A stretch of 51,642 bases of DNA, counting the filler, from Sphacelaria rigidula (taxonomy: Eukaryota): NCBI GenBank assembly GCA_964200075.2. It is 2 parts of 2 records of this genome, joined end to end, with 100 filler letters (N's around TTAATTAATTAA, not from the genome) between each part and the next. Parts side by side here need not be neighbours in the genome. Positions count along the whole stretch, not along the records: positions 1 to 25,800 come from CAXNAA020000155.1; 1 more part is not named here. One strand, 5' to 3'. This document shows positions 1,183 through 25,800 of this stretch, one piece after another. Positions within the stretch are counted from its first letter, which is position 1. Every line of letters begins with the position of its first letter. The notes beneath the pieces were generated by a model, which saw only the letters and a list, made by a program, of their open reading frames with translations, was not told the origin of the DNA and did not search any database. Both the position numbers and the translations under genes were made by a program.

Positions 1183-1509
1183 ATGGACGCCCTTCCTTTT
1201 AGCTGTCGCGGGTGCCACGAAGGGTTCAGCAGTAAAGTAGAATTGCGTTCGCATGAGCGTATGAATACCGGTAGAGGGGGTTGTCTGGCCGAGCAGCCAG
1301 GTCATATCGCTCTCACGGCGGATACCCCACCAGTTCAGCGGAATCTGCGTGCGTTACGTGAGCTGGAAAGCGGACGCCGTCAGTCGGAGGCAACGACTGG
1401 AGGCCAGCGTCGAAATTCACGAGCAGACGAGTTGGTTCGGGTGCCGCGTATCCACCAGGCAGGTCCTAGTGGAGCTGATCCGCCCTCAGAGAAGGACGAC
1501 CCGCACCAG
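1183..1509 (+). CDS. Transposase exon 1 (zinc-finger N-terminus)
   Basis: ATG at 1183, MDALPFSCRGCHEGFSSKVELRSHER (F-x-C-x2-C-x3-F-x5-L-x2-H). Ends CAG|GTGACA at 1510, phase 0. The link to exon 2 crosses a 5.85-kb intron and rests on phase and domain order. Confidence 0.6.
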
Positions 1510-1685
1510 GTGACATGCAGCACACTGAGTATACCACCCCCCACCCCTCTTCTCCATTGCTGTATCGGTAAACGGAAGTACTGCACCCTTCGTGGTAGTG
1601 AGCGCGCGGAGAGGTCGATAAATGCTACACAGCGCGTGCGATGTCAATGAACGTACACGTTTAGAGCATGTTTGAATTTCGTTTA

Positions 1686-1776
1686 TTTTTCGTTACGTCC
1701 ATCATGAGACGACGGCTGGACCCCTGGGGGGTCAGTTAAAGTACGACAATCAATCAATCAATCAATCACTCAATCA
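1686..1776 (+). mobile_element. 3' end of a non-LTR retroposon with (CAAT)n tail
   Basis: Short unique body ending ...gtcagttaaagtacga, followed by a (CAAT)n tail at 1747-1776, inside transposase intron 1. The class is inferred from the microsatellite tail. Confidence 0.45.
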
Positions 1777-3199
1777 GCACACATCTAGCAGTGCAGGTCG
1801 ACACGGCACAGTATAGTACCCGCCGCATGTCTCTGAGAATACCGTACGATCTCCGTATTACAGTACCGCGTATGCTGTCTGTTTGAGCGTGCAGTGGAAC
1901 TGTCTTGTTGCGGTGCAGTATCCCACGATCACTTGTCTCTTGCGCTCAGCTTCGACGGCAGCGTACTAATTTCTTCCTTGCCATATACGTTTGACCGTTG
2001 ACACACCAATTCAAGACGGAGCAGCATACTTACTCCCAGTAGAGACACCTTCACCATTCCAGTGCTCATGAAGTTTCTTCCATACACTACACATCAATCT
2101 TTGGCATATATTCTCCCAGTCATTTTCGCCGTCTTGGCCACTATCCATCTCCTAGTGTGTCCATCGTTTTGTCCCAACCGTGTAAGGCGTGAAATAATGT
2201 CATGCCGCCGTTGTTCACGCCCCGCTTCCTCCCTTCAGCAGGTGCCGTGCCTCCCTCTACACTTCACACTCGCCACTACACGAATTATGAATCCTTTCGC
2301 TTTGCGACAGGGGAAAATCTGTGTCTCTACTTCCTCCTCCCCTCTGCTGCTGGGATATCTCTTCTTCCTGGCGGGTCCAGGTCTGTCACCCGAAATTTCA
2401 GTTTCAATTATTCCCCCCCGTCCATTTCGCCATGCCGATATTTTCTTAGCCCGACCCCCTCTCTCAATCCCCGTATATCCTCACGTTCTGCTCCTCGCCC
2501 ACTTCGCGCCTAAAAGACGGGGGTTTACAAATTGGGGATGGATTTCCTGGGGGGGGATCTGCGGCGGGGGGATGATAATCTTTGTGTCCACACGAAATGT
2601 TCTACACATGGTTCCATTCCTTCATCTATTGGTAGCTACTACAGGTGGCGGCAGCACCTAAGAAATGTCCAGTTAAGGAATCGAGGCTCAAAATTTTCAG
2701 ACATTAAGAAATTGATACTAAGAAATTTTGCTCAGATCGGAGCGAATATAAGGATAAGAAATTGAAACATGCAGGAGGCTCGGCGGATAAGAAATCTATC
2801 ATCGACGCTGCGACCTTGGGAAATAAGAAACTGGTCCCAGACCCATCAGCCCCTCGACGCAAGGATGCCCCCCCCCCCCTCTCTACCCCCTCCTCACGAC
2901 AATACGGTACAATAGTCAGTATGTATTCGTGTACAGTACAGTACAGAACTACAGGGATTGTACAATAATGCATACGCTACAGTGTACATTATCGGAAGAT
3001 GACCACTGTCGGCGCACAAGAAGGTGCTCGCTGGTTGAGCGACCATTCGGACAATGTGTCTGCTGATACGCACCTATCTGCGGTAATGCATACCTCTGCA
3101 CCTCTGTATTACACCCCAATGCCCAGAGTGATCGCCTGCAGAGCTTCAAGCTTGATTGGCTGCAGCACAGAGTACAATCGTGTTGTTATCCGTGAAATA

Positions 3200-4218
3200 A
3201 CAGCTGATCATTGAAATTGAGGATGGAGATGGTCATTGAGGATAAGAACCCGGAGAATTTAAATCTTCGTATCCCACGAGATCTTCGAAGTATGATTCCA
3301 TTCCTTCACCTGTTCTACTGGTAGCGATTGATAACTACCGTACGCCTAGGCTTTTGCTTCTTATGCGCATTCCTTCTTTTTTTTTATGCGCGTTTTCCCA
3401 TTTTTTTTCGTGTTCAAAAGCGAACATTATGCGCGGATTTGTGCGCATTTTGGTGAAATATGCGCGACTTATGCGCCTTTTTCGCGTCGTTCTTGAGGCG
3501 GTTCCTGGCGGCACCGCTCATGGAACGTACCTTCCAGCTAGAAAACAAGACGGCACGTCGAAAATTTCGAGATTTCATTTATTATTTTTTTAATCAGTTT
3601 GGCATTAACATAAAGTAGCTCACATACAGCCCGCAACAATGTTCAACAAAAGAAATTACGAACACAAACGCCAAGACTTACGAACCACGCCATATGGAGC
3701 ACCCGTGGGCAGCTACCACCTGCTGGAAATGGGGTGCGTAATCCCGTTGGAGTACTACATGCGCCAAGTTATGCGTAAAACTTAGCTGTTATGCCTTTGT
3801 TACGCTGAAATCTCCGAAAACATTTGTTTTCCATTTTGCGCATATGCTTATGCGCAAAACCCCGTTTCATGCGAAATTATATGCGCGCATAAGAAGCAAA
3901 AGCCTACATACGCCATGCAAATTTGGATTTCGATTACCGAAATGTTGGGGTCCCAGGTGAAAAGTCGATTCCGGGGAATTTCGGTGATCCCATCGGATCA
4001 CCTACATTCCCCAAAATTGTTTCTTTACCTGTTATAGGACCCCAACATTTCGGTAATCGAAATCCAAAATTGTATGGCGTGTAGTAGTTGTCAATAGCCA
4101 CCAGTAGGTTGAGGAATGGAACCATATTGCGAAGATTTGGTGTGGATACGAAGATTCAAATTATCCGGGTTATTATCCTCAACGAAAAGCTCCATCCTCA
4201 ATTACCATGATTGGCTGT
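3200..4218. mobile_element. Foldback non-autonomous element, family B (core related to family A)
   Basis: Arms 3200-3346 plus 3915-3950 pair with 4037-4218 (e.g. ttcgattaccgaaatgttggggtcc / ggaccccaacatttcggtaatcgaa). Termini ta|acagc...gctgt|tg. Another right end of this family lies at 25901-25966 and ends gctgt|ta. Confidence 0.75.
3347..3906. mobile_element. hAT-type MITE
   Basis: 22-bp perfect TIR taggcttttgcttcttatgcgc. 8-bp target duplication cgtacgcc (3339-3346)/catacgcc (3907-3914). Subterminal TTATGCGC repeats. Confidence 0.85.
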
Positions 4219-4314
4219 TGAATGTATACGTACTAGTGTACTCTAGGGTACAGTGAATAGAACGAGCTGTGACTGCATGTTTTTTCATTGTTATCTGCCT
4301 CCCATATAATAACG

Positions 4315-4576
4315 GAATGATGCTACGGTAGAGGTGCACAAATATTATCTGAGGTTTGAATTGTTAGGAGCCCTGTTTCTCCTCCAAAACACCACTCACG
4401 AAATGCATGAGGGTACGCCAGGATTACTATTTCAATGTCCTACTGTAGAGATGTCCCGAATGAATTTGCAAACGAGGATGCCCTGACCCATACTCTCGTG
4501 CAATCTAGAATCGTTAGGAGCCCCTGAACCAGACAAGATTTCGAGCAAAAAGTGCACCCCTACCGTAGCATTGCTC
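4315..4576 (+). mobile_element. About 260-bp MITE family D (GAG...CTC termini, 4-bp TSD; Sola2-like), copy 1
   Basis: TIR core atgctacggtaggggtgcac. Flanks aacg/accg. Four more copies in the window. Confidence 0.8.
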
Positions 4577-5141
4577 ACCGGTATGTACTATATCATATAT
4601 ACATGATACAGTATGACACTTTTATTGCGATTCACCCCGATGTGATCGCCCTTATTTATATGTATTGCACAGCAAAGGAGTACACTACATCTGTGCTGCT
4701 CAATAATTTTTTTTTGCTGTGTACTGCGAGGCCCCTGAAGATAATCTGTCCAAGCAACACTGTAAAAAAACGAGATGTCTTCCTATATTGTACTGTGCCC
4801 CCCGATGAAGGATGTCGTTATGTCATGCAGTGCTTGTCCTGATACACCTGGCATGATTGTACGTATGGCTGTCCCTCGAGAGGTCGAAAGATGGGACCTT
4901 GCGGTTCTTAGTTCTTTGGTTGGTGGTATTTGGGGTCTTGAGTCTCGCCCGTAGTCGGACCCTATGTTCATTTCTACTTGGCCTCGCGCGTCGAGTTGGA
5001 AAGCCGTGTGCCGGCCTGAAGTCCGATATGGCCACCTGCGGCACCGGATCTTCTGAGGTTAGCCATATGTATTCTGAATTATTTATCCCTCTTTTGCTTG
5101 TATCGCGTTTTGTGAATTTTAAGTTGGGTCTACCGTTTTGC

Positions 5142-5253
5142 TAGCCTGTGACCACGGAAGGCGCCCGCATCAGATGCCCAGTACGAACGAACCGCGCAGA
5201 TTCGGAACGGTTTTTCAATATAAACACAACCACAACCACAACAACAACAACAA
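5142..5253 (+). mobile_element. Short retroposon 3' end with (CAA)n tail, copy 1
   Basis: tagcctgtgaccacgg...agatgcccagtac...gcgcagat...(caa)n. Reverse-oriented homologs at 27320-27412 and 47405-47547. Confidence 0.6.
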
Positions 5254-7362
5254 CTGTAGTACTACATCCGTTCGAAAAAAAAACTTTTGCTTTCAAGAAT
5301 TCCATCATTTTGTACGCGCCCGTGAAGAAAAAGAAATTGGCCTTTAAGAAATTCATCATTGCGCGTGTGCGGAAAGTAAGAAATTGGTTTAAAGAAATTA
5401 TGCTTGGCTCGGCGATAAGAATAAGATTTGAGCCTCGCCTCAAATTAGAGTTTCTTAACTAGTGACGCCACCTGTATATGGACAAGTACTGCACGCCATA
5501 AAACTCCGTATTCCGAGAACCGAAACGTAGGGGTCACAAGGGGAAAAAAAAAATTCGGCGTCCTCTTCGTTCGCCGAACTACCCCGGGTTTGGTTTTAAT
5601 CCCCGGGCGCCAACGTTTCGGTTTCCGAAATCTAAATTTGTGCCACGTGTAGTATCCGTCGCAAGCTACCAATAGGTTAAGGAGTGAAACCATGTTTCCA
5701 AGATTTCGGGTGGACATGAACATTGTAATTCTCTTGGCGCAGGTCCCCAATAAAAACCCTACCCCGCCTCGTTGAATTCCGTGATCTCAGCGCTTCCTCT
5801 CCCCTGCTTTCTATCGTGTCCGTTACTATTGTCTTGTGCCCCGCACTATCACCTACGAATAGTACTTCGTCTTTGTTTCCTCCTATTCCCCTCCATTTTC
5901 CCCCAATTCATGTATCCCACATTCGTCCGCCCGGCCCTGTCATGACTTTCTTCCACGCCAACCTATCAAGTACTGATGGCAACCTCTGCCCCTGCATGTT
6001 TTCAACGCTATGCTGACATCTCAACTCTGTCATGTCCCCGTTTTTTTTAATCCTTCTGGAAACCTCCCCTTCTGTCCCTGGGCTAGACGCCTCGTAGTGT
6101 AGGGCCGTGACGAGGAAGAAAAGATAGAGATAGAAAATGCCGCGGGCAACCATTGCACCATGGAACACGAGGTAAGAATATACAGATCAAATTAAATTGA
6201 ATAAATAAGTAATTGATCATTGGTTGGACTGGTCGGATTGGGGATGGATTCGGTTTTGTTTTTAAGAAGGAAAGAGGACAACAAAAAACTATTATTTAGG
6301 TAATAATTGCTTGGATGGGTTGGATGGGTTGCGGATGGTTGGGTTGTTCGATTGATTTCGAGATTTTTGGGAGAAGGAACGACGATATAGCAACACCCAC
6401 GGCAGGAGCAGGCAGAATGCTCCAGCTGGAGACGTCGGGGGAGGGTTGTCCAATCACACTACGCGACTGATGAAGAGTGTGCAATTGTATCCATCGACAG
6501 TAATCAACAAAAGCCAGATGAAACATGCTACTTAATACATAGCTACGGGTTCCCTAGTGTAATATGGCACATCGATACGTCAGGACTTTGGTGTACGAGG
6601 GAAGCACCCCTTGATGGGCTGCACCATCAGATGGCGAGTTTGTCAAGCCACATCATACATACCTGGCTGCGTGGTTGAGCACCTAGGGTTCACGTCACTA
6701 CATGTTGAAGGGTAGGGCGGCGACCCAAGCGCGATCCACCCTCAGCTTCTCGAGGGGGCGGGGAATATAGGTCCGGCTGCCGCTAGGCGTTTCGCGGGCG
6801 AATACTTCATGAAGTCTCGCATCATGCACTCATCATTAGTGCCACGCTGGAAAATCATTCCAGTGCGGCTACTTTGTTTGGGAATGCCGCGTACTGCACC
6901 AGTACCACTGACTGTATAGAGTAGATGTACTTCACCATACGCAATGTACTGTACTGTTGTGGAGTTCTGCATTACGCTATCTCTACTACAGTGTCTACAG
7001 CCCACGCAGCACAGCACTTCAGCACTGCAGCACAACAGTACTACAGCGACTTCTACTGCGCCCCATAGAAACAACAGAAGAGGGACCCTACCTTTTTGCT
7101 CACATTCACCCTCACCGATGTACATTGGGCGAATATTTTCGCACCCCACCTGTAAACAATTAATCATATCCTGCTCGACAAACATCAAAAGCAAGTCGTA
7201 GAAATCCCGATGTGCGTTCCGAAGTGGTTCCGATAGTTTATTCCCAAAGCTTAGGGTTAGCTCTATTACTCGTCATTTTCGAGCACCCAGGCATCTTCCT
7301 TGCTTCCGCCATATGCACTGTTTCCGACGTATCCATCGAGTTCGCGTTCCTTTCCTATGCAG

Positions 7363-8854
7363 GCGGAATGTGTCACCGGACACGAAGCCGGCGCTCTCAG
7401 GATGAAGACGACATGACACACAGAGGACAACCACTCGGAATGCTGGAGTAGCACGGGATCGGAAGAATGGACCCATGATAGTGATGACGATCGAAGTGAT
7501 GCGGGCGAAGATGTTGCTCTCGCCGGGGGGGATAGCGGCGCCACTGAGGGCGGCCGCAACATGGACGGGGTGCAGTAGGATGGTGAGGTGCACTCCGGCG
7601 TCGCGCAGACCCCGGTGTTTTCACCGGACAGTGATCCCGGAGGTGGGCACGCTTCGGTCCCATCTCTTGAAGACCTGCACATCCTATTCGGGGGACACAC
7701 AACGGAAGGGGGAGATGGTAACGTCAAATATCGGGAGAGAGCACGCCGCTCGCCGTATTATCCGTTCAGGAATCTCACTGAGCTCATGCCCTTTGTGTTC
7801 ATATTCAAGCACCAGCTGTCGAGAGCGGCTGTTACAGACCTCTTTCGACTGCTCCGTTGCGTGGACGGCGAGGAAGGAGACGAGGCGGGCTAGGGACGCG
7901 CATTCGATGCGCGGGATGTGCCGGATAATGCACACAATTTCATTCATAGGTTGAGGAAATACCCACCTCTCCTTCCCGTGATAAGAAGGGAGGTGCCCAC
8001 GACAACAGACGGGGTGACCGCTGACGTCTATGACATACCCTTGAACCTTCAGTACGCGCGATTCCTCAAGTCCAGGCGTTTGATGGAGGAGATCGATGCA
8101 AACCCCGGGGGTCATCTTTGCAGAGAGATGGAGGCCTCAGATAACGGTCTGGGAAGTGATCACGTTATGGCCGGTCCGACGGAACCGGTTCACGGCAGAA
8201 GACGTTCCATGATGCACGGAGGGCTGGCTCGTGGGTCACCATTCCTGGGTTATGACGGTGTCATTTGCCGCAAGCCACGAAGAGTGTACATCGGAGAGAT
8301 ATTGATCTGTACAGTCCCAACGGCGCGTGGTGACGACGAGGAGGAACGGCCCTGTCGGATAGTCAGCATATTCTGGGATGACTCCTCGCGGGTCCTTCGC
8401 GTGCAGCTGAGGCGCTTCCACTACGCCCCGGAGGTAGGTATTCGGTCGAACGTCACAGGAGAAAGCGGTTTGTGGGGGTATCAGAAAGGTTTGGGAGGCG
8501 CAGGGAGCTGAGGCCCTGTTCGATGTCGAACCATCCGCTTTGGTGGATCTGTGTGAGATGCTGACCATGACCGAGCGAAAGACGTGGACGACGCAGAAGC
8601 CCTGGGCGATGGGAGTCCGGCCTTCGTCGGAACGGACGTTGTGCTATGAGGGATTCGTCCGACAGACGCGTCAGCGACATAGGTCGGGCGGCCGATTCGA
8701 GGTTAGTGGCGAATGGCGTCGAACGGGGGATGCAGGAGAATACTTCCCGGACATGAGAGCCCCTGGCGTCCACCACAACACGAGTAACCTTCCCTTCTGT
8801 GGTATAGGCGCTGTACTGCATATCGACGCCTTCAATGTGCACGGGATGACGCAG
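7363..8854 (+). pseudogene. Transposase exon 2 (acidic linker, YYPF region, first catalytic Asp)
   Basis: Pyrimidine-rich acceptor ttcctttcctatgcAG at 7362. Reads ...SPYYPFRNLTEL...VYDIPLNL...AVLHIDAFNVHGMTQ|GT at 8855. Contains three in-frame stops and one frameshift. Confidence 0.8.
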
Positions 8855-8927
8855 GTGGGAGTATGGTTGCGAATGCGGGTCGAGTACAGGTCTTTCTTTT
8901 CACTACTCGGGCAAAATACAATATGTT

Positions 8928-9215
8928 AAAGGTTGGAGTAGACCGAGTACGGCCTCAAAACTTTGACTCAAAGACTGATCAGATTGAGAAGGGTCTCGCA
9001 TAGTGGGCTCAATTCTTGAGCATTCTGAGCACGGCGTAAAGTCCTCTACTCGATTTCGAGCTGTTCGGGTACGAACTTGAACACTCAGATCTAATGTGTG
9101 CCGTGGGTGTAACCTCAAATACTCGACTCAAAAGTTTGGTTGGGTTGAGCATGACCCCAAGTAAGCAGGCCGAATTTGGGGTAGGTAGAGCCCGATCTCA
9201 AATTCTCTGCTCGCC
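8928..9215 (-). repeat. Highly degenerate copy of the GAGGTCATAC internally repetitive element
   Basis: Starts aaaggttggagtaga (compare TIR at 20396). Contains reverse units such as gtaacctcaaatactc and catgaccccaagta. Confidence 0.45.
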
Positions 9216-9688
9216 CCGCACCCGTAAGCTGGTGCACCTCCGACGCCGCATGCCTGCTCACCCTGATGAACACCGAGCGAGCGTGACGTCGATGTTTTTT
9301 TTTCCAGGGTGCAGCCGCCAGGTATTGAAGTTGAGCGCTACACCTTGCAAAACGATGCGCACGGGCACGAACAACAAGTTGAGGTCGCACAAACATATGC
9401 ACCTCCACGCTACGAGGAAGATGTGCGACAGACATGGGTAGCCGAAATGAAGCACCAGGGCTGGGTGCGGATTCATCTCTCGCCGAAACGATATGCAACG
9501 CATGTTGCGAAGCGAAGATGTGGACGCAGCCGTGTCTAGGTCAGCGCCGCATCTGCTCATGTTGTGACATGTTTTCCTTGGATAATGCGCGATAACGCGG
9601 CGGAAACTCACGCCCTCTGCCGGAACCGTGACCCCTCACGGCGCACATTGACGTCGTACTACCGCTCAACCCCATGCTAACGTAACAG

Positions 9689-9901
9689 CTATCCGAGGAC
9701 GGGACATATGCCACCGTCGCAACCACTACCCGAAACCTTCAGCGATCGCAGAGACACCCTCACGTAACTACTGTGGCGGAGGCAGGAGCAACGGTGGAAG
9801 GGGAACTGTCCATGGTTGCCGGCGTCATAGGTGCAATGGAGAATGGCTGTATCGCTGAATGTTGGGTTCGAAACGCCGTAGGCGTCCGGGTTCTCATCAA
9901 G
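9689..9901 (+). CDS. Transposase exon 3
   Basis: aacAG|LSEDGTYATVATTTRNLQRSQRHPHVTTVAEAGATVEGELSMVAGVIGAMENGCIAECWVRNAVGVRVLIK|GCAAGT (GC donor). Open, 71 codons. Confidence 0.75.
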
Positions 9902-9915
9902 GCAAGTATTGCATA

Positions 9916-10818
9916 TAGTAGTCACCGCCAGAAGTCTGCAGAATGCGTAGTTGTTGCAATTTTTTACTTTTTTCTCGAGTGATATTCTTTGGAAGTACTT
10001 GAACGCGCTAACGTCGGGAGATGGAGGGGGAAAGTGTATGCTGAATTCAAACCACAGTGCCCAAGTTCATGTTTTTGGGGCCATATGGACTTGATACCCC
10101 GTTTTCCAGGAGAATGTTCTTGACCGTTCTGGTCGGAAAACAACAGTCCCCCGGCTCTTTCGTTACGACACGGTATTTCATCATCTGAACGAAAATGTAT
10201 CAATTCTTCGAGGATTAAGATCAAGTTAGTCTTTTCCTCCTACACCCTAGGGACCTGAATGGAGCATTTCCCGTCTGTGGCATTTTTTCGGGATTTTTCG
10301 CCATAATTTCTCCATAAGTACTCGAAACCGCGAGGGTCGCTTCTTTTGGCAATAGAAGCAGATCGTACTCAAATCACGATGCCCAAATGGGTGTCGTGGG
10401 GGCGATACAGGGAGTTAAGACCCCGATTATCAGGACGGCGTTATCGACCGTGAGTTGTCCAAGAAACATAGCTTTCCGTGTCTCGCGCAGTGAAAAGTGG
10501 AATTTCGAAAAAACTAATCCTTTTTGGGGATTCATTTCTGTGATCGGGATGAAGTAGGTCAACCGAAAATTCCGAAGATGCAGAACCTGGGGTAGCACAT
10601 TCGCAGGACCCCCGAAGATCGATCAAGCCCGTATGTCATTCAACGTAAATCGCATTTTTCTTCTTCGGGTAATTGTGAAAAGGACTGTCATATATCAAGA
10701 TGCCCATTTTTGGCATCCAGCCTTCACTATGATGAGAGGTGGCAAGCGAACGAACTTCGGAAAGTCTCCAATGAACCACGAGACCACGGAATTTGAAAAC
10801 TTGTGGCGGTGACTTCTG
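9916..10818. mobile_element. TIR element of about 900 bp in transposase intron 3
   Basis: agtagtcaccgccagaagt near 9917 vs acttgtggcggtgacttct at 10799-10817 (inverted, 17/19 match). No coding capacity seen and TSD unclear. Confidence 0.55.
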
Positions 10819-11052
10819 GTGTACTACTGATTCGCCAACCTGACATAGTCGGGTCGCAGCGTCTGCTGTAGATTGAAGCCTTTTGGTCACGAGACGCGAG
10901 AGACACGTCTACGGAAGCGGCACCGGTTCACTTAGCGTTCGTGCTTACGCAATGACACAGACTCCCGTCTGGAATGAGACTCCCGTCTGGGATGAGGCCC
11001 ATCTCACACCCACTCTACCCCGCCCTGGACGACTCCGCTCCGACAAAATCAG

Positions 11053-11430
11053 GTTTTATTCCGTGGAGGCCTCTTCGTGATCATTGCAGATAGTCCGCAA
11101 AGAGCAGTTCTGACGAACGCGAAGCATCTGAATGGGTCTACGCTGTACCCCTGCCCGTACTGCCGGGTCAAGCAGACGGGAGAACACGACTGCCCATTGG
11201 GCCGGCATGTTATTGACATTACAAGCACAAATCGCTGTCGACAGGAATACGAAGAGGCATTCGCCCGCCTTGAGAAGCTGCCACCGGGATCGACAGCAAG
11301 AGTGGACTTGTCGAAGGAACTCGGGGTTGTGCCCAGGCGGGAGGGTCTGCCGCACCCGATGTACGACCTAGTGCGAGGGGGCGAGATACTGAGGCGAATA
11401 CCACCGGAAGCATTGCACGCTGACGCCCTG
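11053..11430 (+). CDS. Transposase exon 4 (second catalytic Asp, CxxC, ExLH)
   Basis: tcAG|VLFRGGLFVIIADSPQRAVLTNAKHLNGSTLYPCPYC...IPPEALHADAL|GTGAGA. Open frame. Confidence 0.85.
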
Positions 11431-11585
11431 GTGAGAGTCACATCACGGCCGCCTGGATCATCCATGTCTATTGGGCCATGACCCCACCATATGCGCAGTC
11501 CGAAACCGACCTCCAACATTTCACCCGCACGTCACCTTCTCGCCCCATGCTTGCTGTCCCTCCCGGCCGCCGATGGTGACGACAG

Positions 11586-11816
11586 AATCACCTAGGTTTG
11601 GTCCAGCCGTGGCCGCTATCGCTGTTGAACGAACGTGGACGAGAATGGGTAAGCAGTTTCATCCGTCAGCGCAGTGGGGGACTGTACGCGGCCGGCGCGG
11701 TGCCTGTGAAGGATCTTGTCAGGAACTACGCATCTTATACAGCATCGCACAAGTGGGAGCTGGCGTCGACAATGCTACTGGTCTTCCGCGAGCCCCTGAG
11801 GGACGTCGAAAACATG
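11586..11816 (+). CDS. Transposase exon 5
   Basis: acAG|NHLGLVQPWPLSLL...YASYTASHKWELASTMLLVFREPLRDVENM|GTGAGA. Phase 0 on both sides. Confidence 0.7.
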
Positions 11817-12859
11817 GTGAGAGAGGCGGCGATGGGTTACACACGCGCACGGCAGGATTGAAAATAAGCATGACTGAAATGGGAATTTGATTGGGCGAGT
11901 ACGAATGGTAGTCGCGCGACGCCAAACACAGTGGTGTCCGTCCCAACGCGCCCTGTCACGTGAAGACGCATGAGTTACGCGTGAAACTCGAACCCGGATA
12001 AAGTCAAGGGCGGGTCCAGAGGTAGGCCAGACGGCTGTCTCACATTTCGTACAAGGGAGGGTATCTGAAAAAAGTTTGTCCCCCCTACCCCACGCGAATA
12101 CAATACGAAGCCTGGTCCGGCGAAAAACCGGCGTGATCCGTGTCGCCTTTGTAGCGACGGACCCCAAAGCGGTTGGCGTCGGTTGGCGATGACGCTGTGA
12201 AACACGTGTCTCACTACGTAAGCTATGGCAAGCAGGTTACCGATGTTTTGTTGCACGCTTGCATTTTTTTATTTTTTGCGATAAACATGGTAGTCCAGCT
12301 ACATCCTGTTGTGCGGCGTGGGAGAACTTCATCTCCGCATTTTCGAGAGGATCGTGCTACGTAGTGTTGGAATGGTGAGACACCCATGAGGCAGTGTGTA
12401 GGCCATGGCTGTCCCTGGAGGTAGTGATACCAGAGAAGGAAGGAACTCATCGCGGGCTGTCATCCATGCAACATAATCAGCAGGCTTTGGGCCGAACAAT
12501 ATTTGCAGGATGCAGTTCACCCTTCGTGCGACTCGCCGAACACACAATGGCGCTTCGCGCTTGTTGATGGAGTGCGAGCCTGGTACGGTGAACACCCAGC
12601 GTGCTCCGTCCCGCCTTTGGAGGGATGTGAGGCCTATGGTCTGATGATGATGGCTTGCATGATAATGAGTACACCCTCCACGCTAATACCTCTGTAACAT
12701 ACAGTGAATAATTGAGAGTTTCAGGTCACATACACAAATGTGCGGTCTTGTTTTGTCACGGGGGCGACGGGGAGGCGGTAAAGTGGTAATAGCAGTGACG
12801 AGAACAGGAACTATCGACCGCCGCGCAATCGTACGTAGATTTGCGTGACGATATGAAGC

Positions 12860-14130
12860 CAATGTACCTGGCGGACAGACATCACTAAGGGCACGTTGAG
12901 CAGGGTATGTACTTTCCAGCCCCGTCGGAAAATACCCAGGTAGTCCCCATACCCGATGATTCGGTGTATTGGGTGCGACCTCAAACGCCCTGGCCAAATG
13001 TTCGGCAGTTCGGCCACGACGCCAAACACTAGGTATCAACATCTTGGGCGGATGGGGTATGACACCCACACCATACCCAAGTACGGGACAATCGAAGTCG
13101 GCAATACACGGCTGTGGACCAGCACTCTGATCCGATCTCAATAAAGTACCATATTCGACGCAATCTGGGAACGACTCTGATTTATATACCCGTACATTGG
13201 GAAGAGAGGTTGCGTCCTCAAATATTGAACCCAAGTGTGGATCAACACCCCCAGCATCACAAGGGAATATAGCGTGAGCTGAGTGTGATCACAATACCCG
13301 TAGAAAAGGTAGGGTACCCCGAATACCTCACCCTGTTACCCTCCCCGAATGTGGGGTACATGGGACTCGAATCCAACACTCGACATAAACACTTGGGGAT
13401 GTCATTTCAGGAATCCCCGGGTGTACAATACGGGGCGGATGTAACTACTAACCCTCGCCATCTATAACTGGGTGACTTCACTTCTCGGTCGAGCTCAAAA
13501 TTTTGGCAGAATGCCCGCACCAATACGCTGAGTTTTTTTACACCGCCGCCTACCATGGGAATCAGGGAGAAGCGGCAGTCTAAAAACGAAATGGCGCGCA
13601 ATCGCGAGAGCCCCGAGGCCGCCACTCCCGGAGCGCTTGACTTCAAGGGCACGTCGAGTGGACCACATACCACTTAAGGCTAGAGGAAGATGCCGTTTTT
13701 ACTCAACCGCAGGTGTGGGCAGACTGCGCACCTCCTCAAGTACCCACCCACAGGTGACTAGTCGGAGTACATCAAGTACTCTACCCGAACACTCGGTGAG
13801 CACTCGCGGCAATACATTGGCACAGATAGTGCTTAGGTATGAAGCCAATACTCAACCCAAATTCGGAGGCTCTGAGTACGATTTTATCATCACCCCACAC
13901 TTTTGGGATGCAGGGGATGACCTAAACCGCCCATGAACCCAAGTTCTAGCAAGAACTCCTGGCAACATCCAGGGTGAGAATATAGCACGGGTGTGATGTC
14001 AATATTTCACCGACAATCTGGGCAGGCTGGATACGATCTCTGTCCCCCTGCCCATATATTGTTGTGGATTGGGCATAACCTCAATCCTCTACCGTAACAA
14101 TAAAGTGGGTCACCTCAGCAATATTGAGGT
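12860..14130 (-). repeat. Old degenerate array of the GAGGTCATAC family (reverse orientation)
   Basis: Recurring variants of gtatgacctcaa (gtgcgacctcaaac, gcgtcctcaaatatt, gatgacctaaac, gcataacctcaatcctctac). Confidence 0.5.
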
Positions 14131-16178
14131 CTTCCTTTCCTAACATCTGTTCCCATTCTTCGTCGACTTCTCTGTCCCACCCTTGTCCACCCTGCACTTT
14201 CGTATCTTCCTTCCACGCAGCCCAAAAACGTGTTCCTGGCATTCTCATTATCTGCCTGCTCTAGACGCTATTTAGCAAGCTTTATTTTCTCATGCCTCGC
14301 ACCTCATCTTAAGCGGGTACATTCCGAAATCTTCGCCCAATGATGTATCACTCACCGTTTTCCAGTATCGAAGCATTTTCCTTGCTGGCGCCACGTGCCT
14401 GTTCTTCAACTTCATCATCAACTTTGCGGTCCCCTCCCATACCTCTCCCGCACTTTCCACGTTGGATACAAGCACGTCGATCACGAAAATTGTTGTGTCC
14501 CTAGCATATACTTAAGACTCTCCGAGGATCACGTCCATCCTGGCAACCTGTTCCTCACCCTTTGCAATGGTTTTTTTCACGTGTGCATCCGAACAACATG
14601 CACTAGAGGTGTGTTGCAGTTCCATCTCTCCCCACTTCGATCGACTTCCTCCGGGGTTTCGCCACACATTTGTTAACGTTCGCCGCCCCTTCCCATCTCC
14701 TTGTGCATTCTACCGTTTTCTCTACATGCTTTTGTATTCGATGTGGTGCACCAGACATCCCCGCGAAGTAATCCTCGTAGCCTAATGGTCCGACCATCGC
14801 CATGACGGTGGGCAGAAGGAGGGTTCGTAGAGTTTTTTTTTTCATAGCCTCTGATTTCCACCGTCGAGAGGATGAGAACGTGAATGAACACAGTACGAGC
14901 AGGTTCAGCCGACAATCCCAGGTGATGGGCAACAGTTTATCCACCCTAGTAAATCGAAGAGTTAGGCGCTGAAATTTTGCCGACATTTGTTTGGTCAGTC
15001 CCCCCAAGATTGTTTGAGGTGCAGATGAAAGAAAAAAAAAGACAGAGCGATCAAAAGTTGCGGCAAAATCAGGAAAATTCCATCACTTACCGATAAAATG
15101 ATAAATACGGCTGCACCCCAAACGACTTTGAAGGCACCAACGGCCAAAACATCGTGGTAAAATATCAGCTAAAAAGTCGTCAAATTGGGCGGTGAATCGC
15201 ACTTCTTGTGTGACAGAGCTGCGCTCAACAGTTCATAGTTACAACAAGTCATTACCCTGCGGGTCTGCGAAACGAAACGTATCCAGACACGCTACCACGC
15301 GACCCTTTCGGGAGTACAGTAGCGCGTCTCATCGTCAAAACCGCGCCAATCGAGTAGCGGCAGTGTGGTATCTTTACCATGTTCGTGTGCAGTTCGCAGC
15401 TATATGCTGAGGCCGCGGTGACTTGAGGAACTGGAGAAGTGTTGGTGCGCAACCCTCATCAGCGGTTTACTGCTGGACCAGCTCGTAGTACTCGGAGTTA
15501 GTTTGACATGAGTTGACGCGGTGCGGGAATGACGACCCGATCCGCGAGACGCAAAATGAAGGCGTGTACAGAGGAGAGGTGGGTCGATCTTCGGAGACGA
15601 GGGATTCGTTCCGAGAAAGGGGAGCAGAAAAAATGCGTCAAGTCCATCAGTACAGGGTGAAAATTATGCTAAATACTCGTCGGGGGTCAGGTGGCTTCCA
15701 GTCCTTCGAGTTTTGATTTCGCGCGAGATAGGAGAACCTCATCTCAGCGCCAAGTGAATGATCCTACTTTGCGCTGACGCCGTATGCAAGGCATGACTGT
15801 CTCTGCGGTTGGCGATACTCCACGATGAATCCAACCCTTCCGGGCTATCAACCAAAAACAATGTAATCAGATTAATCCGGATAGAGTAATCTTATCAGGG
15901 CGCACGTCACCGTTAATGCAACTAACCGAAGAGGTGAAGACGCCCCGCGCTTGGTGATCGACTGCCAGGCAGGCCAGTCAGAAATCCGATGTGCTCAGTA
16001 CCGACTTTGAACGGACGCGAGGTCAATGGGTACGTGACCATGGAACACAAGATACTGGGTACACCCCTCCCCGCGCGCGCCCTCCCACGCTCACACACAT
16101 CTCTTCCCGAGCCAACCCTAAACGGAAGTATTCCGAATCCTCGCGCGGTCAATCCTCCCCGCTAAATGTGCACTCCAG

Positions 16179-16361
16179 GAAAATTACATGAAGGCCAACC
16201 GGCTGTCGAACCTCGGTCATGGAGGGTTCCTAACACCACTGGACGTGCTTACGCGGTTGAGGAAGCTGGTACAATGTTCATCTATGCTCACGTACACGAT
16301 CCGTTCTCCGGAGTGGGGAGAGAAGGAGTTTCAAGGCCTGCACGACAGAGTAAAGGACTAC
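16179..16361 (+). CDS. Transposase exon 6
   Basis: ctccAG|ENYMKANRLSNL...LRKLVQCSSMLTYTIRSPEWGEKEFQGLHDRVKDY|GTGAGT. 61 codons, phase 0/0. Confidence 0.7.
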
Positions 16362-17416
16362 GTGAGTTCATCGATTGACTGTCCTCGTGGACGCGCGGGG
16401 TTATCGGTGGGGTGGCATGGATCCGGGATTGTTGAGACGGGTGTCCATGTCAACCGCGAAAAGAGAAGGAATCACCAGACTATCCCTGACAAAAATTCAG
16501 GAATCAGGCCGGAAAGACCGCCGCATAACCCCACACACGTGCCCGACACAGCGCCCCATCTCGAAGGGCGAGACACGGCGGTCACGGGAACGCGTGCGCG
16601 TGGCACGGCCGCCGAGGTAAGAAAGAGAAATAACAAACAACCGGCGTTCATAGCCGAGAAACTCTCAGATAACCGCGAGGCGTCCATGTTTGACGTAGGT
16701 CGAGTGGGATCCGAATGGCTTATATAACGAAACCTGACCCAAATAGGAAGGATGAAGGTGAAGGCAAATTACACGGATTGCAGCCGCAAGTACGAACAGG
16801 GGAACACAGATAGATGAGGGCGCGACGAACGATACGACGACAGCACCCCCAGGAAGAAGCGGGGAATAGATAAATGAAGCTCAAAGTGGGCGCCGAGAAA
16901 GAATCTCAGCGAGGATTGGACAAGGAGGAGCGGGCGCGAGTTTCTCAGCGTGGGACACTAATGTCTCGCAGCCCCCCATGGCCCGCCTACGGGTTACCAC
17001 GGCTCCATGTAGAATTCGCGGCAAACTCACTCATTACAGTAGGCCTTCTGCCACTGCTGATGCTGCCGCGCTTATGCATGCCAGACCGCGAAACGTACCG
17101 TAGATCAAAGAGCATTGCGGACGCATTCCTGTTGTCCATGCTTCTTTCACACAGTCACTCCGGCCGGTACCGATGGAGCAGGTGGCCATTCGGCGCATCG
17201 AGCCACCGTAGCATTCAACCATGGGCGTTAGACGCATGCGGCACGACACGTGGCCATGGCAGCCGCCGGCGACAGACCTCGCCAAGCCCGCAAAGACGAT
17301 ATATGCCTTCCATACACACACGAACAGGCGCACATGGTGATAAGCACAGCGATAACACTGAATGCACATGACACCTACACCATATGCCCCGCTACATTAA
17401 TCACCATACCACGCAG

Positions 17417-17507
17417 ATGCTGGTGGCCGTTGAAGTAATCCGTTCGGAGGGGGTGCGCCCTTCCCTGCATTCCCTGCTTCATCTCGCTCGAGCGGTCCGG
17501 GACGTGG
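17417..17507 (+). CDS. Transposase exon 7 (HxxxH motif)
   Basis: cgcAG|MLVAVEVIRSEGVRPSLHSLLHLARAVRDV-G|GTGAGT. The phase-1 donor matches the phase-1 acceptor at 22335. Confidence 0.75.
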
Positions 17508-19289
17508 GTGAGTGATCATAACTAGCTGCCGTGTTCACTACCTTCGGGCGAGGTGTTGGTATGCGATGAAGGCGCAGCTTACACAAGGTGGGAGCACCCG
17601 AAGTGAGGGTCTCCCGCCCATTTCAAGGCGCAGATGTCCACACGCCGAACGATTCATTCTTCGTCGAGACGAGTGCACTTGGTTATGTTTTTGGAAACGC
17701 TACAAGCATGTCTTTACAGCTCTCGGCGTATTGATTCTTTCACACCACGAACGATGACTCGACTAACCGCCCAGATATTTCTATCACTGGGAGCGATGCT
17801 TGAAGAACTTGATGCACGGAATTTGTCCACCACGAGCGCGGACTCGAATAATCACCCTACTATTTTGTATCGCTATGCGTTGTGACTCCGATACTCCACC
17901 TATTGATTTTGTGCACCACGAGGGATGGGTCGAGTAGTGGCCACATGAACTTTTTACACCACAATCCATGCCTTCAGTACAAGACGAACTACTTGTCGTA
18001 ACGACGAGTAACGACTCCAATGTCCTAGACCTCCAACGAAGGCCCTACAGCAGGAGAACGAGGGCGAATCTCACGGGCTGTATCCGCGTTCGCCCAAGAT
18101 ATAACAGACTTCCACCACTCGTTGCGGATATAAAACTTCCGACCATCTTTTGTGCCGTGCCTAGACATCGGCCGTGCTGCACGGTGTCATGTCCCGCAAG
18201 AACCCAAGTTGCAAGTCCGCAAACGGTACATAGTACAAATTACCTCTTTTAGGACTGAACGCCACTAACACAGGGTTCACCATGTGTTAGCGCAAGAAAT
18301 ATAAAACTGTCCGGGAGCGACCTACCCAATCACGGCGCTTCAAAATACCGGCCGGGGCTGAAGCGGGAAGTTATGCCACTGCGGAGTATCTGCGTGTATC
18401 CTGTTCCCAGTCCCCGAACGAACGCTCCAAGCAAAAGAAATCCCGCATGGGGCGGGCTAGTTTGTCATTTTTTTGTGGTAGCTACTTGGTCGACAGGGAT
18501 GAACAAGTTGTGAATTGGCAGCTGATCTCCGTCGCGGAGAACTGACCACAACGTGTGAGTCTGCAGAGGCAGCTGCTGCTTTGGGGGTCGTTGCTGTACT
18601 GTATGCGCCGTAACCCCATGCCCTACGAAGAATATTTGTCGCATGTAACAAACAGGGAGATCGTGGCCCACCCCTACCACAGATGAATTTGTGGGGCAAG
18701 GTGATGACAGCAATATCATCCAAAGCCACACCCCATTGAACGCTGACTACGGTGGACGGCGGTGCTGCTTGTTCACAACCGGCACAATACCTCATGTACA
18801 TTCCACCACCCAAAATATAGAACAGTTTGTACTTTCACCTTAACCCAGTTTGAATGAAACATTTGGTTTTCAGTAAAATGATGCCACGGTGTCGTGCAGC
18901 TTGCGTGTAGACGCAAATGTCATGCCCACAACCGTCACTGATCGTTCTGGGCGTCCTGGAGGGCTCTCAGACGTTCAGTCCGCAAAGGGTTCATAATTTT
19001 TCATGTCGATAGAGAGGGACAATTTGTGACTGTCGGGGTATCGCCACTGGTCGCAGTTTGAGTGGTCCCAAAATCAGGGAAATCGAGATACACGAGCATC
19101 CGACACTATTTCTGAAGATGTATGCGGCCATAGACCATGTTCAGGTCATGAAAACATCAATTGCTCGCCTTCATCCTCACGTCTCGACTTGAGTCCCTAA
19201 CCAGGAGCCACGACTCGTGTAGCAGAGATATTTCCCAACACGAGCACTCGTCGAGAGCACGACCTCTCTATTTACTTGACAACAAGGGG

Positions 19290-19560
19290 TGACTACAGTG
19301 CTCGCCCCTTCCATTTCTTGCCGCCACGAGCAATGACACCTGTACTCGCCCTATGTTTCATTTTTGTCACCACGACCATTGAATGGAATAGGTGGCCCAC
19401 TGATGTTTCCACCACGAGCGATGACCGATCACCCGCCCTACCAATTTTTGCCACTACGACCAATGGCTTGAGTATTCGCCCTATCTTTTACGCAACCGTC
19501 GATGACTGCACCAATCGCCCTATTATTTGTCCCACCGTGAGCGATGACTGGAGCTCTCGG
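19290..19560. repeat. Degenerate tandem repeat of about 40 bp (CTCGCCCTA..TTTTG.CACCACGA.CGATGAC)
   Basis: About six diverged units visible. Related sequence at about 17880-18060. Confidence 0.55.
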
Positions 19561-19973
19561 CGTGCTAATAGTCTTTCATCAAGAGGAATTACTCCAGTAC
19601 TCGAAAAATTGGTTTATGCCACAAGAAGTAATGACTCGAATGATCTCCGACCTCCAAGCACGCCCACAGGCGGCCGAACGACTGCGAGTGCGACGAGTCA
19701 TGCTCGTGCTCGTCCGACATCCGCAAATGTCTCACCTGCTCCGCATGGCACCCGTGCATGGTAAACGCGGCCGAAGACTGAAGCCATTAAGGTGTTCTCC
19801 CTGGGTCCTCCTACCGCAGAGGCACAACGCGCTCTGAAAGCGCGAAGGTAGGGATAACATACCCCTCACACAGGTCTGGCATCCATTGCCGACGATGCCA
19901 AAGAATACACCACCCACCGCGTGAGATAGGGAGCAGGTTACCGTTTTTTCGGATAATACATATTTGATTGCCG

Positions 19974-20229
19974 AAGGAATTCCACAGTGCGGGTGCACAT
20001 TTCGCGCGTGATCTACTGTGCTCGATGGGTCCCTGACGATTCTGGATGCACAAGGGTATGGGCCGGGGCATCCATGTTGGCAACTTCGGTCAGGATACCC
20101 CCAGCACATTGGAATAGTAATCCTGGCGTACTCGTCGATATTTCGTAAGCCGTGTTTTGCAACGGATGGAGGGCTCCTGACTATCCTAACGTCTGAAAAC
20201 AATTGTGCACCCCTACCGTAACATCACGC
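19974..20229 (-). mobile_element. MITE family D, copy 2 (diverged)
   Basis: Ends gtgcacccctaccgtaacatcacgc. Flanks gccg/gcca. Internal sequence aligns with the other copies. Confidence 0.75.
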
Positions 20230-20395
20230 GCCAGTGGGAGGAACCACATGGTTTGAAGGACCTACTTTGGTCCTCTTCTGCGGCGCAATGGGATGCGCTC
20301 ATCGCCAACCCATGTCTGCATGATCTGTATTATTCCATGGCAAAATTGCATTTGATGGCCTCGACCACACACGACCGTACCCGTGCGAGTTCTTC

Positions 20396-20950
20396 AAGGG
20401 CGGGTTGAGTAGAGTATACTCAGTACTAACTAGTTTTGGGGAGTCATGCTTGAAGTACTCAAAATTCGAGTATTGGAGGTCATACTTTTGGTACTCAAAA
20501 TTTGAGTAGAATACTTGAAGTCATGCTGTCAATACTCCAAATTTGTGTAGAGTAATGAGGTCATATCCAAGTGATACTCAATACTGGAGTATTTCTGAGA
20601 GTACTTACCCAATACTGGAGTAGAGTACATGAGGTCACACAGTTTTCGGGGTCATAATTTTAATACTCATATTTGACCAGAGTACTGGAGGTCATACCCT
20701 GATGATACTCTATACTCGAGTATTTCCGGAAGTACTTACCCCATCCTTGAGTAGTCTGTTCGAGGTCATCTTTTGACTTCTTGAAATTTCTTGAAATTTG
20801 AGTAGAGTATATGAGGTCATACTTTCGAGTACTCAAAATCTTGGCAGGGTATTTGAGGTCAAACTTGCAATACTGAAACGCCGGGTAGAGTAGATAGTCG
20901 GGTATTTTACCCGAGTATTCAAAAGTTCATTCTCCACTCAACCAGCCCTG
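20396..20950 (+). mobile_element. TIR element filled with about 38-bp GAGTAGAGTATTTGAGGTCATAC repeats
   Basis: Left TIR aagggcgggttgagtagag, right ctccactcaaccagccctg. More than ten internal diverged units. Confidence 0.7.
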
Positions 20951-21339
20951 GCACTGTTCCCACCATCGGATCTCCCATGGAGGAGTCAGATGTGCCGCCC
21001 AAAGCGTCGCTCATTTCGACAAAACGTACTCGACTACCCGTCTACTCGAGACCCCGACGGTGATGAGTACCGCCTAGTACTGAAGCTGATATCGCAAAGA
21101 TAACGAGGTATGAAGTGTGCGAGAAACTGACATGGGTGGGGAAAGGTGAGCTGCGACGCGTAGGCTCATGTGCGTGCACACTTTTTGTCTTTTATGGCCA
21201 CCCGACTGTTCGCTCATACTCATTGTAGCCTGTCACGTAGCGTCACTCATCTAATTGATGGCCATCGTTGACCGATGTATTCAACATAGTCTGTGAAGTG
21301 AGGTGACGTAGTCGCCCGCGGTCACCGTTACTCATCATA

Positions 21340-22046
21340 CTCCAGGTATACTCTATGCCTGAGTGTTTTCGAGAATGCTTACCCAATATTTGAGCAGAGT
21401 ACTTGAGGTCATACTCTTGGTACTGAAAAATTGAGTAGAGGATTTGATGTCACCCTTTTAATACTAAAAAATTGAGTAGAGTATTGAGGTCATACCCAAG
21501 TGATATTTTATGCCGAGTGTTATCGAGAGTGTTTACCCAATATTCGAGCAGAGTACTTGAGGTCATACTTCTGGCACTGGACATTCGAGCACAATGTTTG
21601 AGGTCACCGTCTTGATACAAAATATTCGAGTACAGTATTGAGGTCATACCCAATTGATACTCAATACTGGAGTATTTCTGAGAGTACTCACCCAATACTC
21701 GGGTAGAGTATTTGAGATCATACTTTTAATACCCAAAACTAGAGTACAGTTTCTGAGGTCACCCTTTCAATACTAAAAATTCGAGTAGAGTATTGAGGCC
21801 ATACCCAAGTGATAATCTATACTGTAGTATTTCGCAGAGTACTTACCCAATACTTAGGTAGACTATTCAAGGTCATACCTTTGAAACTCTATTTCTGAGT
21901 AAAGTATTTGAGGTCTTACTTTACGTACTGAGAAATCGGGTAGAGTATTTGAGATCATACTTGCGATACTCAAGCGCTGAATAGAGTAAATAGCCGGATA
22001 TTTTACCCGAGTATCCAAAAGGACATACTACACTCAACTCGCCCTT
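21340..22046 (+). mobile_element. Second, 5'-truncated GAGGTCATAC repeat element
   Basis: Same units and same right end (tattttacccgagtat...actcaactcgccctt). No left TIR found. Confidence 0.7.
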
Positions 22047-22111
22047 CTTTATCGACGTGGTCACCAATGTCTGCGGTGTTCCATGACCCACGGCAGTCGG
22101 CGGGCGGGAAC

Positions 22112-22113
<2 letters not shown>

Positions 22114-22181
<68 letters not shown>

Positions 22182-22239
22182 CCCCGCAGCGCGCNNNNNN
22201 NNNNGGGGGGCGCCACCCCCCCCCCCCCCCCCCCCCCCC
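22114..22239. other. Assembly gap with poly-C flanks (probable artefact)
   Basis: Ns at 22195-22204 flanked by long homopolymer C runs. Confidence 0.8.
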
Positions 22240-22335
22240 TGTTCGACAGAGTAAGTGAAGTATATACTGGCGGCATCCAACATCGTCACCCCGGCATAAC
22301 ACAGATATTATTGTTGCACCCGCCCGCACCGACAG

Positions 22336-23522
22336 GCGTCATGCCCGACGCTTCAGTGGGCGAACACGCTCATCAGATCCACAAGCGATCAAACAAATCC
22401 AGCAGCGGGCGCACCCCTGCCGCACACCATATCCAGAGATTGAACACACGACTGGCGCTGAAGGCAATGGCTGATGGTACGTCGTGGCTTGCCGTAGGCC
22501 GTGAGTGAGCGGCCGGGGGCTCCAGGACGTACAGCGTCAACACGGGGCCAGGGTGCAGCCGGCTGCTGTCTCACCTTCGCAAGACACTGCGCGGGGGGTT
22601 GGGATGTCCCGTCGACACCGAACGCAACTCTTCGGCGTCGTTGTCCACGGGTGCATCAAGCACATGGGAAATGCGCCTGTGGCCGGAAAGCGGGGGGGGG
22701 GTGAAGAGGAAAACGACGGCGCACAAGGGGGGCGACATCTGAACTGGCAGGCAGCCATCCAGAAATCGTACACGCGCCCTGATGCAGCAACGCTGATTAA
22801 GGGTTACCACACATGGTTCGGGTGCGGGAGAGAGGGCAGAGAGCCGCCATGCGACCAGGCAGCGTGTCCCGACTGTTGGGACCAAAGTAGTGGCGACGCC
22901 GGCGGCTTAGCCAACATCCGGTTGGAAGGGTGGAGATATCGGGGGAACGCGCCGCGCGTTGAGAGTTCGGGGACGGGAAGGTGGCGAGGCGGGAACGTAT
23001 AGACCGCAGGGAAAGCAGGAGCTGAGCATGGGTGGGCCTTTGGTGAAGGCAGATGGGGAAGACGTCGAGATATATGTTACCCCCCGCGCCGCCGCAAACC
23101 GCTCGGTCGGCGTAGGAAACATCACGATGGCTAGTATTCTGTATTTCTTCGGCCATGTGGCTAACAGTAGGCCAGATGGTGGAAGTCCTCCCGCGACACA
23201 GTGGATGGCCGTATACGAGTACGTGAGTATTGCGCCCGGGAACGGGACGAGTTTCCACTGCGACTCCGCGACTCAGCATCCCATATACCTCCTTCGTGCG
23301 GAAGGGGGTAGGCCTCAGATTTTTTCCGTCGGCGCCATACGCAAGCATGTATCTTTGGTGCATGCATGCCCGATACGCGGAGAATGCAAGCCGAAGAGGT
23401 CGGCGCAAGGGCCTGTCCTGCGACATCACTACAAGCTTGCCCGTGCGCAGAATAGGACTCCGGACCTTTACCTATTAAATGGACATCCCCACAGCGTGTG
23501 CCGCACAGACACGTTCCTTTAA
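22336..23522 (+). pseudogene. Transposase exon 8 (catalytic Glu and C-terminus)
   Basis: acAG|(G)VMPDASVGEHAHQIHKRSN...LALKAMADGTSW...NTGPGC..., ending IFSVGAIRKHVSLVHACPIRGEC...HHYKL...YLLNGH...FL* (TAA ends 23522). One stop and two frameshifts. Confidence 0.75.
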
Positions 23523-25734: not shown

Positions 25735-25800
25735 GAGTAATGCTACGGTAGGGGTACACAAATAATTTCTTAGGTTAAAATTGTTAGGAGCCCTTTATCT
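25735..25800 (+). mobile_element. MITE family D, copy 3 (truncated by gap)
   Basis: gagtaatgctacggtaggggtacac...ttgttaggagccct, then Ns. Confidence 0.75.

Follow-up and report, generated by a model that had tools for sequence, protein, structure and literature searches.

The gene described here lies in a 51,642-nt stretch of the genome of the brown alga Sphacelaria rigidula (GenBank assembly GCA_964200075.2) and is very probably the transcribed, spliced and decayed transposase gene of a brown-algal DNA transposon of the EnSpm(CACTA)/Plavaka branch, within the CMC/CMCT group. The whole stretch, called the window below, consists of joined parts, the first of which (CAXNAA020000155.1) covers positions 1 to 25,800; all positions are counted along it. 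Its base composition is about 50% G+C and it is rich in repeats. An earlier note, made from the sequence alone, had described the locus as a hidden, eight-exon transposase gene of the CMC/Plavaka kind, implying a giant DNA transposon.

Gene structure and splicing

Eight plus-strand exons fuse in phase into 4,099 nt, corresponding to about 1,366 codons. The gene spans 22,340 nt, of which 18% is exon and 82% intron (Table 1). This is in good agreement with the earlier note, in which open reading frame pieces had been joined into about 1,360 codons and about 80% of the span had been assigned to introns. Every motif named there was found on the plus strand where it had been placed. Two descriptions had to be amended. 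The splice sites had been called canonical, and the borders are indeed GT-AG, except for intron 3, which is GC-AG. The zinc finger of exon 1 is present as a block (C-x2-C-x12-H-x3-N) with three of its four ligands, and its match to Pfam zf-C2H2 (E = 0.0024, 18.7 bits) falls below the cut-off of 25.2. When exon 1 is joined to the acceptor at 7363, the reading enters the same frame as the YYPF motif. Exon 6 gave weak tblastn matches to the Ectocarpus proteins P0056 (E = 0.002) and P0057 (E = 0.001). Exon 8 aligned collinearly with P0057 in three frames (tblastn, summed E = 8.9e-45), and likewise with P0058. The splice model, made by eye, was thus right almost to the base, which indicates that long genes rich in introns can be recovered by reading of this kind.

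The open core of the spliced gene is an already annotated public gene model, so that the gene cannot be called hidden. This model, P0063, is a 521-aa protein that carries the source title 'unnamed protein product [Sphacelaria rigidula]' and was found by a profile of relatives. At 100% identity it corresponds to 8558-8854, 9689-9901, 11053-11430, 11586-11816, 16179-16361, 17417-17507 and 22336-22505, followed by TGA, with exons 7 and 8 joined via a split codon (17507 to 22336). Its predicted core residues are D90 (HIDAFN), D183 (ADSPQ) and E474 (VGEHAH).

Contigs of four public runs were placed on positions 1000-20400. X1, X2 and X3 are three small runs of one study, and X5 is a DNA run from another study. 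The contigs of X1, X2 and X3 join 8851>9686, 9899>11051, 11429>11585, 11815>16178 and 16361>17417; after shifting of the joints, the intron ends read GT..AG, and those of the second joint GC..AG. In contrast, the X5 contigs continue straight across the same introns. The simplest reading of this pattern is that X1-X3 represent spliced RNA. Together with the mapping of P0063, the joints of exons 2-7 support the claim that the locus is one multi-exon gene.

A 2,751-nt X1 contig is unbroken over 7339-8851, which shows exon 2 to be one piece. The alternative of an intron at about 8434-8502 was ruled out, as the same contig spans this region and it is read in frame 2 without interruption by P0055, a relative, and by the Ectocarpus proteins alike.

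The connection of exon 1 to exon 2 is less direct. The X1 contig begins with 158 nt, and one X3 contig with 157 nt, that map outside exon 2, and contigs at about 1350-1507 have depths (11.9 and 12.5) identical to those of the exon-2 contigs of X1 and X3. In both runs the last 86 nt of the approximately 158 nt preceding exon 2 equal 1422-1507. Since the same-depth contigs would supply the 5' part, the joints 1509>7341 (X1) and 1509>7363 (X3) can be inferred, and exon 1 would belong to the same gene, as the earlier note had it.

Two further observations concern exon 2. It has two apparent acceptors 22 nt apart, 7341 in X1 and 7363 in X3. An X2 contig is unbroken from 6835 into the exon, suggesting a retained intron or an internal start.

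Relatives and conservation

Exon 4 was searched against 1.84 billion protein representatives (E <= 1e-3) and matched 53 proteins at 29-85% identity, nearly all of them exon-sized frames of 76-316 aa. Over exon 4, the close relatives P0002 and P0003 reach 85% and 75% identity, respectively. Profile searches added longer proteins, from brown algae only: three from Ectocarpus, one each from Scytosiphon and Laminaria, and the Sphacelaria model P0063. The three Ectocarpus proteins bear three different Ectocarpus labels, P0058 and P0057 being 39% and 36% identical to P0056, respectively. None of the longer relatives has a precomputed Pfam domain. In tblastn their order matches that of the window all the way from the YYPF region to the YLLN end, and this collinearity links exon 8, which lies past the assembly gap, with the rest of the gene; the earlier note had placed it there, and the match holds for both P0057 and P0058. 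One metagenome locus (L001, found with P0001 as query) matched 56 residues and no other exon, and was discarded as unrelated.

Alignment A1 omits seven of the 53 exon-4 matches, four of them long with several short stretches (P0043, P0047, P0049 and P0052) and three very short (P0040, P0053 and P0054). Each of D183, C204, C207, E289 and H292 is kept in at least 90% of the 62 alignment rows. The first D is kept in all eight sequences that cover its site, and H(3)H in five of five.

The intron positions are common to the family, as read from the frames of its members. The LH.D.L motif at the end of exon 4 is followed by V in 46 of 57 rows, and 42 of these 46 read VR or VS, that is, a GTRAG donor read through. 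The other 11 rows comprise five annotated models, two that continue ...ALVQ, one that ends there and three others; the two ...ALVQ rows may be read as spliced, continuing like the annotated models. Q precedes VF.RGG in 17 of 27 rows, as expected for a CAG acceptor that is read through.

Family assignment

According to the literature, the transposases with a DDE core of the CMC/CMCT group (EnSpm, Mirage, Chapaev, Transib and Plavaka) carry the signature D, D, C(2)C, H(3-4)H, E (PMC12730594). The window shows this order, with D at 8819, D at 11086, CPYC at 11152, HSLLH at 17468 and E at 22362, all of which are conserved among relatives covering these sites. At the level of motifs it thus has D, D and E in order together with C(2)C and H(3)H. 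No match to the Pfam profiles PF18759 (Plavaka) and PF02992 (Transposase_21) was found, and the gene is therefore placed in the wider group only, in neither Pfam family.

The ESM Atlas points in the same direction. By features, the nearest clusters to P0063 are Plavaka (0.94) and Transposase_21 (0.93), and the relative P0042 lies nearest to Plavaka (0.95). By structure, the neighbours of P0063 have template-modelling (TM) scores of 0.59-0.78, and three rows reach the Atlas bar for Plavaka or Transposase_21. The structural neighbours include a cluster of 98% Plavaka members (TM 0.65/0.76 over 392 residues) and a Transposase_21 cluster (0.59/0.74). A structural row auto-named 'C2H2-type domain-containing protein' has 96% Plavaka members.

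Foldseek was run against 350,542 PDB chains. RAG1 accounted for eight of the top ten rows with the whole P0063 model and, with the model of exon 4 alone, which is fair (predicted local distance difference test, pLDDT, 78), for all 15 rows listed down to rank 17. In VIA-align, residue 708 of mouse RAG1, its second catalytic Asp, was the partner of model residue 182/183 (Z 3.9-4.2, root-mean-square deviation 4.4-4.8, 81-85 residues aligned). In the wide VIA-align search the whole model retrieved helical hairpins only (Z at most 4.5), and RAG1 came in at ranks 46-47. The Atlas neighbours and the weak RAG1 matches seem to point weakly the same way. Motif order, Atlas neighbours and weak RAG1 matches support the assignment to EnSpm/Plavaka (CMC/CMCT) at group level, which is also the level at which the type proposed by the earlier note stands.

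Decay of the copy and a possible history

Exons 3-7 are fully open, and the breaks lie in exons 2 and 8, as had been reported. Exon 2 contains three in-frame stops (7414, 7576 and 7891) and, near 8437, a single frameshift, at which P0055 reads straight through; since the X1 contig is unbroken there, the change of frame is a 1-nt frameshift and not a short intron. In exon 8 the frame is broken by stops at 22506 and 23000 and, compared with Ectocarpus P0057, by two frameshifts, the first between 22616 and 22682 and the second near 23053. Given eight random breaks in 1,367 codons, the probability of an open run of at least 521 codons is about 0.19, and the open 521-aa frame is therefore no sign of selection. 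Nothing here points to the past domestication that the earlier note had considered.

In the ancestral gene, eight exons would have coded for about 1,366 aa. By analogy with its family, the enzyme would have bound the ends of its element and then cut and pasted it. The eight breaks in exons 2 and 8 reduce the present copy to the 521-aa frame starting at Met 8558, which retains the predicted catalytic core but is missing the N-terminal and C-terminal domains. Because of this loss, the present copy most likely cannot move itself. The length of the gene is explained by the long introns of brown algae and by younger high-copy repeats that landed in them.

Alternative explanations

Several results weigh against the transposase reading. 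The Pfam check that the earlier note had proposed (HMMER against Transposase_21 and Plavaka) returned no transposase match at all: no such family was assigned to any window piece, to P0063 or to the scanned relatives (none of 47 members at E <= 1, none of 4 proteins, none of 6 at E <= 10). PDB sequence searches with alignments A1 and A3 gave no match at E <= 10. The Atlas rows are one source, given without alignment. The AlphaFold model of P0063 is poor (pLDDT 53.6; predicted TM score 0.44), and no RAG1 match reaches significance (Foldseek E 0.11 at best; all Z below 5). X1-X3 were marked 'RNA?' by guess, and no such run is on record as RNA. An expressed core, predicted to be catalytically intact, is also compatible with retained function. 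As to the element, a comparison of 1-1200 with 23480-45000 gave no inverted pair of at least 13 nt, no inverted-repeat pair flanks the gene, and no target-site duplication was found. The search for termini started from a single copy in a window that begins 1.2 kb before exon 1, and used the features of the group (5'-CA..TG-3', inverted repeats and a 2-5 bp duplication). As no terminal inverted repeats were found, the giant transposon of the earlier note is not delimited and its mobility is unproven; the gene would lie in a mobile element.

The retained function could be that of an exapted host protein, a truncated transposase core kept by selection while the rest decayed, which we consider quite unlikely. 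Although all eight breaks fall outside the 521 codons, a run of this length is expected in 19% of random cases. The transcript is made and spliced correctly, the GC-AG intron included, and yet the frame begins deep within it, preceded by exon 1 and by some 1.2 kb of exon 2 in which three stops lie. The zinc motifs are both intact, as are D, D and E, the genome annotators called the gene and the locus also occurs in the DNA runs of the second study (X5); against this, the family has multiple divergent copies, many of which are truncated. A recruitment of an EnSpm/Plavaka-like transposase as a host gene in brown algae, which would parallel the RAG1 story outside animals, is highly improbable. 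So is, with a very small probability, a chimeric 22-kb model in which exon 1, exon 8 or both come from other elements or genes and stand in line by chance. For exon 8, the poly-C tract and the gap at 22114-22204 lie directly before it and the run-contig comparison, covering 1000-20400, ends short of it, but P0057 and P0058 are collinear across the exon 7-8 joint (H(3)H, then GE.AHQ.HK.NK) and the public model links 17507 to 22336 through a split codon. For exon 1, the joint to exon 2 is absent among the joints listed, no relative with an exon-1 homolog turned up (no search aimed at one was made), and in the exon-1 contigs of X1 and X3, 6-9 differences from the window cluster at 1397-1469. Exons 2-7 of the same contigs show no difference from the window, and X5 agrees with it at 1397-1469; a second, near-identical expressed copy may supply the 5' ends of the X1 and X3 contigs. 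On the other hand, exon 1 meets 7363 exactly in the YYPF frame, two runs carry the sequence of 1422-1507 ahead of exon 2, and the Atlas cluster named after a C2H2-type domain consists mostly of Plavaka members. Finally, a KDZ (Kyakuja-Dileera-Zisupton) transposase in place of an EnSpm/Plavaka-like one is extremely improbable. Transposases of the KDZ type can be longer than 1,300 aa, and Ectocarpus has giant KDZ elements (PMC12477816), but the families among the named Atlas neighbours listed are Plavaka or Transposase_21, with no KDZ family, and P0063 and the scanned relatives had no Pfam KDZ match. A decayed transposase gene of the EnSpm/Plavaka branch remains the best explanation.

Table 1. 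Coordinates of the gene and associated features in the window
Feature	Position	Strand	Details and evidence
Exon 1	1183-1509	+	ATG at 1183; 109 codons; donor GT at 1510; open reading frame
Degenerate C2H2-like finger	1198-1263	+	Exon 1; N as fourth ligand
Intron 1	1510-7362	+	5.85 kb; nested repeats; inverted-arm pair 2553-2637 / 5664-5748
Exon 2	7363-8854	+	tblastn to P0058, P0056 and P0055; frames; unbroken X1 contig 7339-8851
Exon 2 motifs	7756; 8819	+	YYPF (7756); first predicted catalytic D in HIDAFN (8819)
Exon 3	9689-9901	+	71 codons; tblastn, P0063 mapping, contig joints
Intron 3	9902-11052	+	GC-AG borders
Exon 4	11053-11430	+	Second predicted catalytic D (ADSPQ, 11086); C(2)C (CPYC, 11152); EALHADAL (11407)
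Exon 5	11586-11816	+	77 codons; NHLGLVQ...; tblastn, P0063 mapping, contig joints
Exon 6	16179-16361	+	61 codons; P0063 mapping; joint 16361>17417
Exon 7	17417-17507	+	H(3)H motif HSLLH (17468-17482); tblastn, P0063 mapping
Intron 7	17508-22335	+	At least 4.8 kb; tandem array of 155-nt units at about 20468-22045; poly-C 22114-22185
Assembly gap (N)	22195-22204		Within intron 7
Exon 8	22336-23522	+	Third predicted catalytic residue E (22362; VGEHAHQIHK, 22356); final stop 23520
Exon 8 Cys/His-rich C-terminal domain	22865; 23136; 23355; 23469	+	CPDCW (22865); ILYFFGH (23136); LVHACP (23355); YLLNGH (23469)
P0063 gene-model span	8558-22508	+	The transcript's only long open frame; starts at Met 8558

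Introns, repeats and other features of the window

The introns contain high-copy repeats and nested inverted-arm pairs. X5 depth reaches 7,000-64,000 at 1647-2293, 2941-5528, 10058-10704, 11999-12645 and 19763-20400, compared with about 14 elsewhere; in the two segments of intron 1 (1647-2293 and 2941-5528) it is 7,500-49,000. The segment 11999-12645, in intron 5, exceeds all others in depth by a wide margin in each of the four runs (7,600-8,800 in X1-X3 and 64,390 in X5) and is thus a very high-copy repeat; it had no Rfam or tRNA match.

A 16-nt motif, GGGTAGAGTAYTTGAG, allowing up to 3 mismatches, was observed in 14 copies against 0.5 expected. Ten copies lie on the plus strand in the tandem array of intron 7 (20504-21953) and four on the minus strand in introns 2 and 5 (9114-13786). 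These oppositely oriented clusters recall the subterminal binding-site arrays of CACTA-type elements, yet they sit inside the gene.

A repeat family of about 260 bp has five copies in both orientations, at 75-88% identity (4318-4576, 20032-20226, 25735-25800, 27505-27758 and 38720-38973). Many contigs break at 4573-4578 and then vary, much as where a dispersed repeat ends. A pair of 271-bp direct repeats, 89% identical and 5.3 kb apart (32404-32674 / 37938-38208), possibly belongs to a long-terminal-repeat element. Between them there is a strong G-over-C skew (0.13-0.16), and the largest frame there (35800-36831, minus strand, 344 aa) had no Pfam match. A large inverted repeat (30638-31419 / 31525-32314) has arms of about 790 bp that are 77% alike and about 100 bp apart. 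At 25801-25900, two runs of 44 N surround TTAATTAATTAA, which looks like a scaffolding linker and not biology.

Pfam assigned no family to 49 other window frames of 110 aa or more, and Rfam and tRNA scans of the window gave no match. A Pfam match to CybS (E = 0.0077, below the cut-off) was taken as chance.

Significance

The locus is of modest biological significance: to the giant, spliced and often broken transposons of the EnSpm/KDZ type known from Ectocarpus it adds one copy from Sphacelaria. The family is invisible to the Pfam models of Plavaka and Transposase_21, and its members stand in public proteomes unnamed and with no domain assigned; for this reason they can slip through the transposon filters applied to gene sets. 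As a bare idea, the family could be the missing autonomous partner of Ectocarpus EnSpm-1, since it has the full D, D, E core and the EnSpm-1 consensus, as far as the available text of its description goes, has a C-terminal fragment only.

Comparison with known systems

For the RAG1/Transib core, RAG1 alone among solved folds ranks first with both models, below significance. The second D of the family aligns with RAG1 residue 708 and C(2)C follows at a similar spacing. The scores (E 0.11 or worse, Z 4.2 or less) concern about 85 aligned residues and the other domains differ, and no claim of close kinship to RAG1/Transib is made.

With the TnpD-type transposases of EnSpm/CACTA elements (PF02992) the gene shares the motif order, a multi-exon structure and an Atlas similarity (TM 0.59/0.74) that reaches the bar. 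It differs in that no PF02992 match was obtained, and in that neither the CACTA ends nor the 3-bp duplication was found in the window. Plavaka (PF18759), known from fungi and red algae, supplies the nearest named Atlas clusters by both features and structure, whereas its Pfam model gave no match even at E <= 10, the host of the window is a stramenopile and the window showed no accessory genes. Red algae are described as having giant Plavaka elements, 17-19 kb in size (bioRxiv 10.1101/2025.02.11.637652).

The closest parallel is found in Ectocarpus. As far as the available text goes, its giant EnSpm, KDZ and Sola-1 transposons exceed 10 kb and have nested transposable elements, spliced genes and a transposase that is often pseudogenized (PMC12477816). 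[quoted passage not shown] In the details accessible for EnSpm-1_Ec32, two differences are evident: the window family has the full D, D, E core in contrast to a C-terminal fragment, and the 21-bp terminal inverted repeat, the CACCC end and the 2-bp duplication were not found in the window. Compared by description and not by sequence, the window and the giant EnSpm elements share a brown-algal host, spliced genes, nested insertions and a pseudogenized transposase, and the closest named relatives of the window are Ectocarpus proteins. By this analogy, the window gene fits the picture drawn for the giant elements of Ectocarpus.

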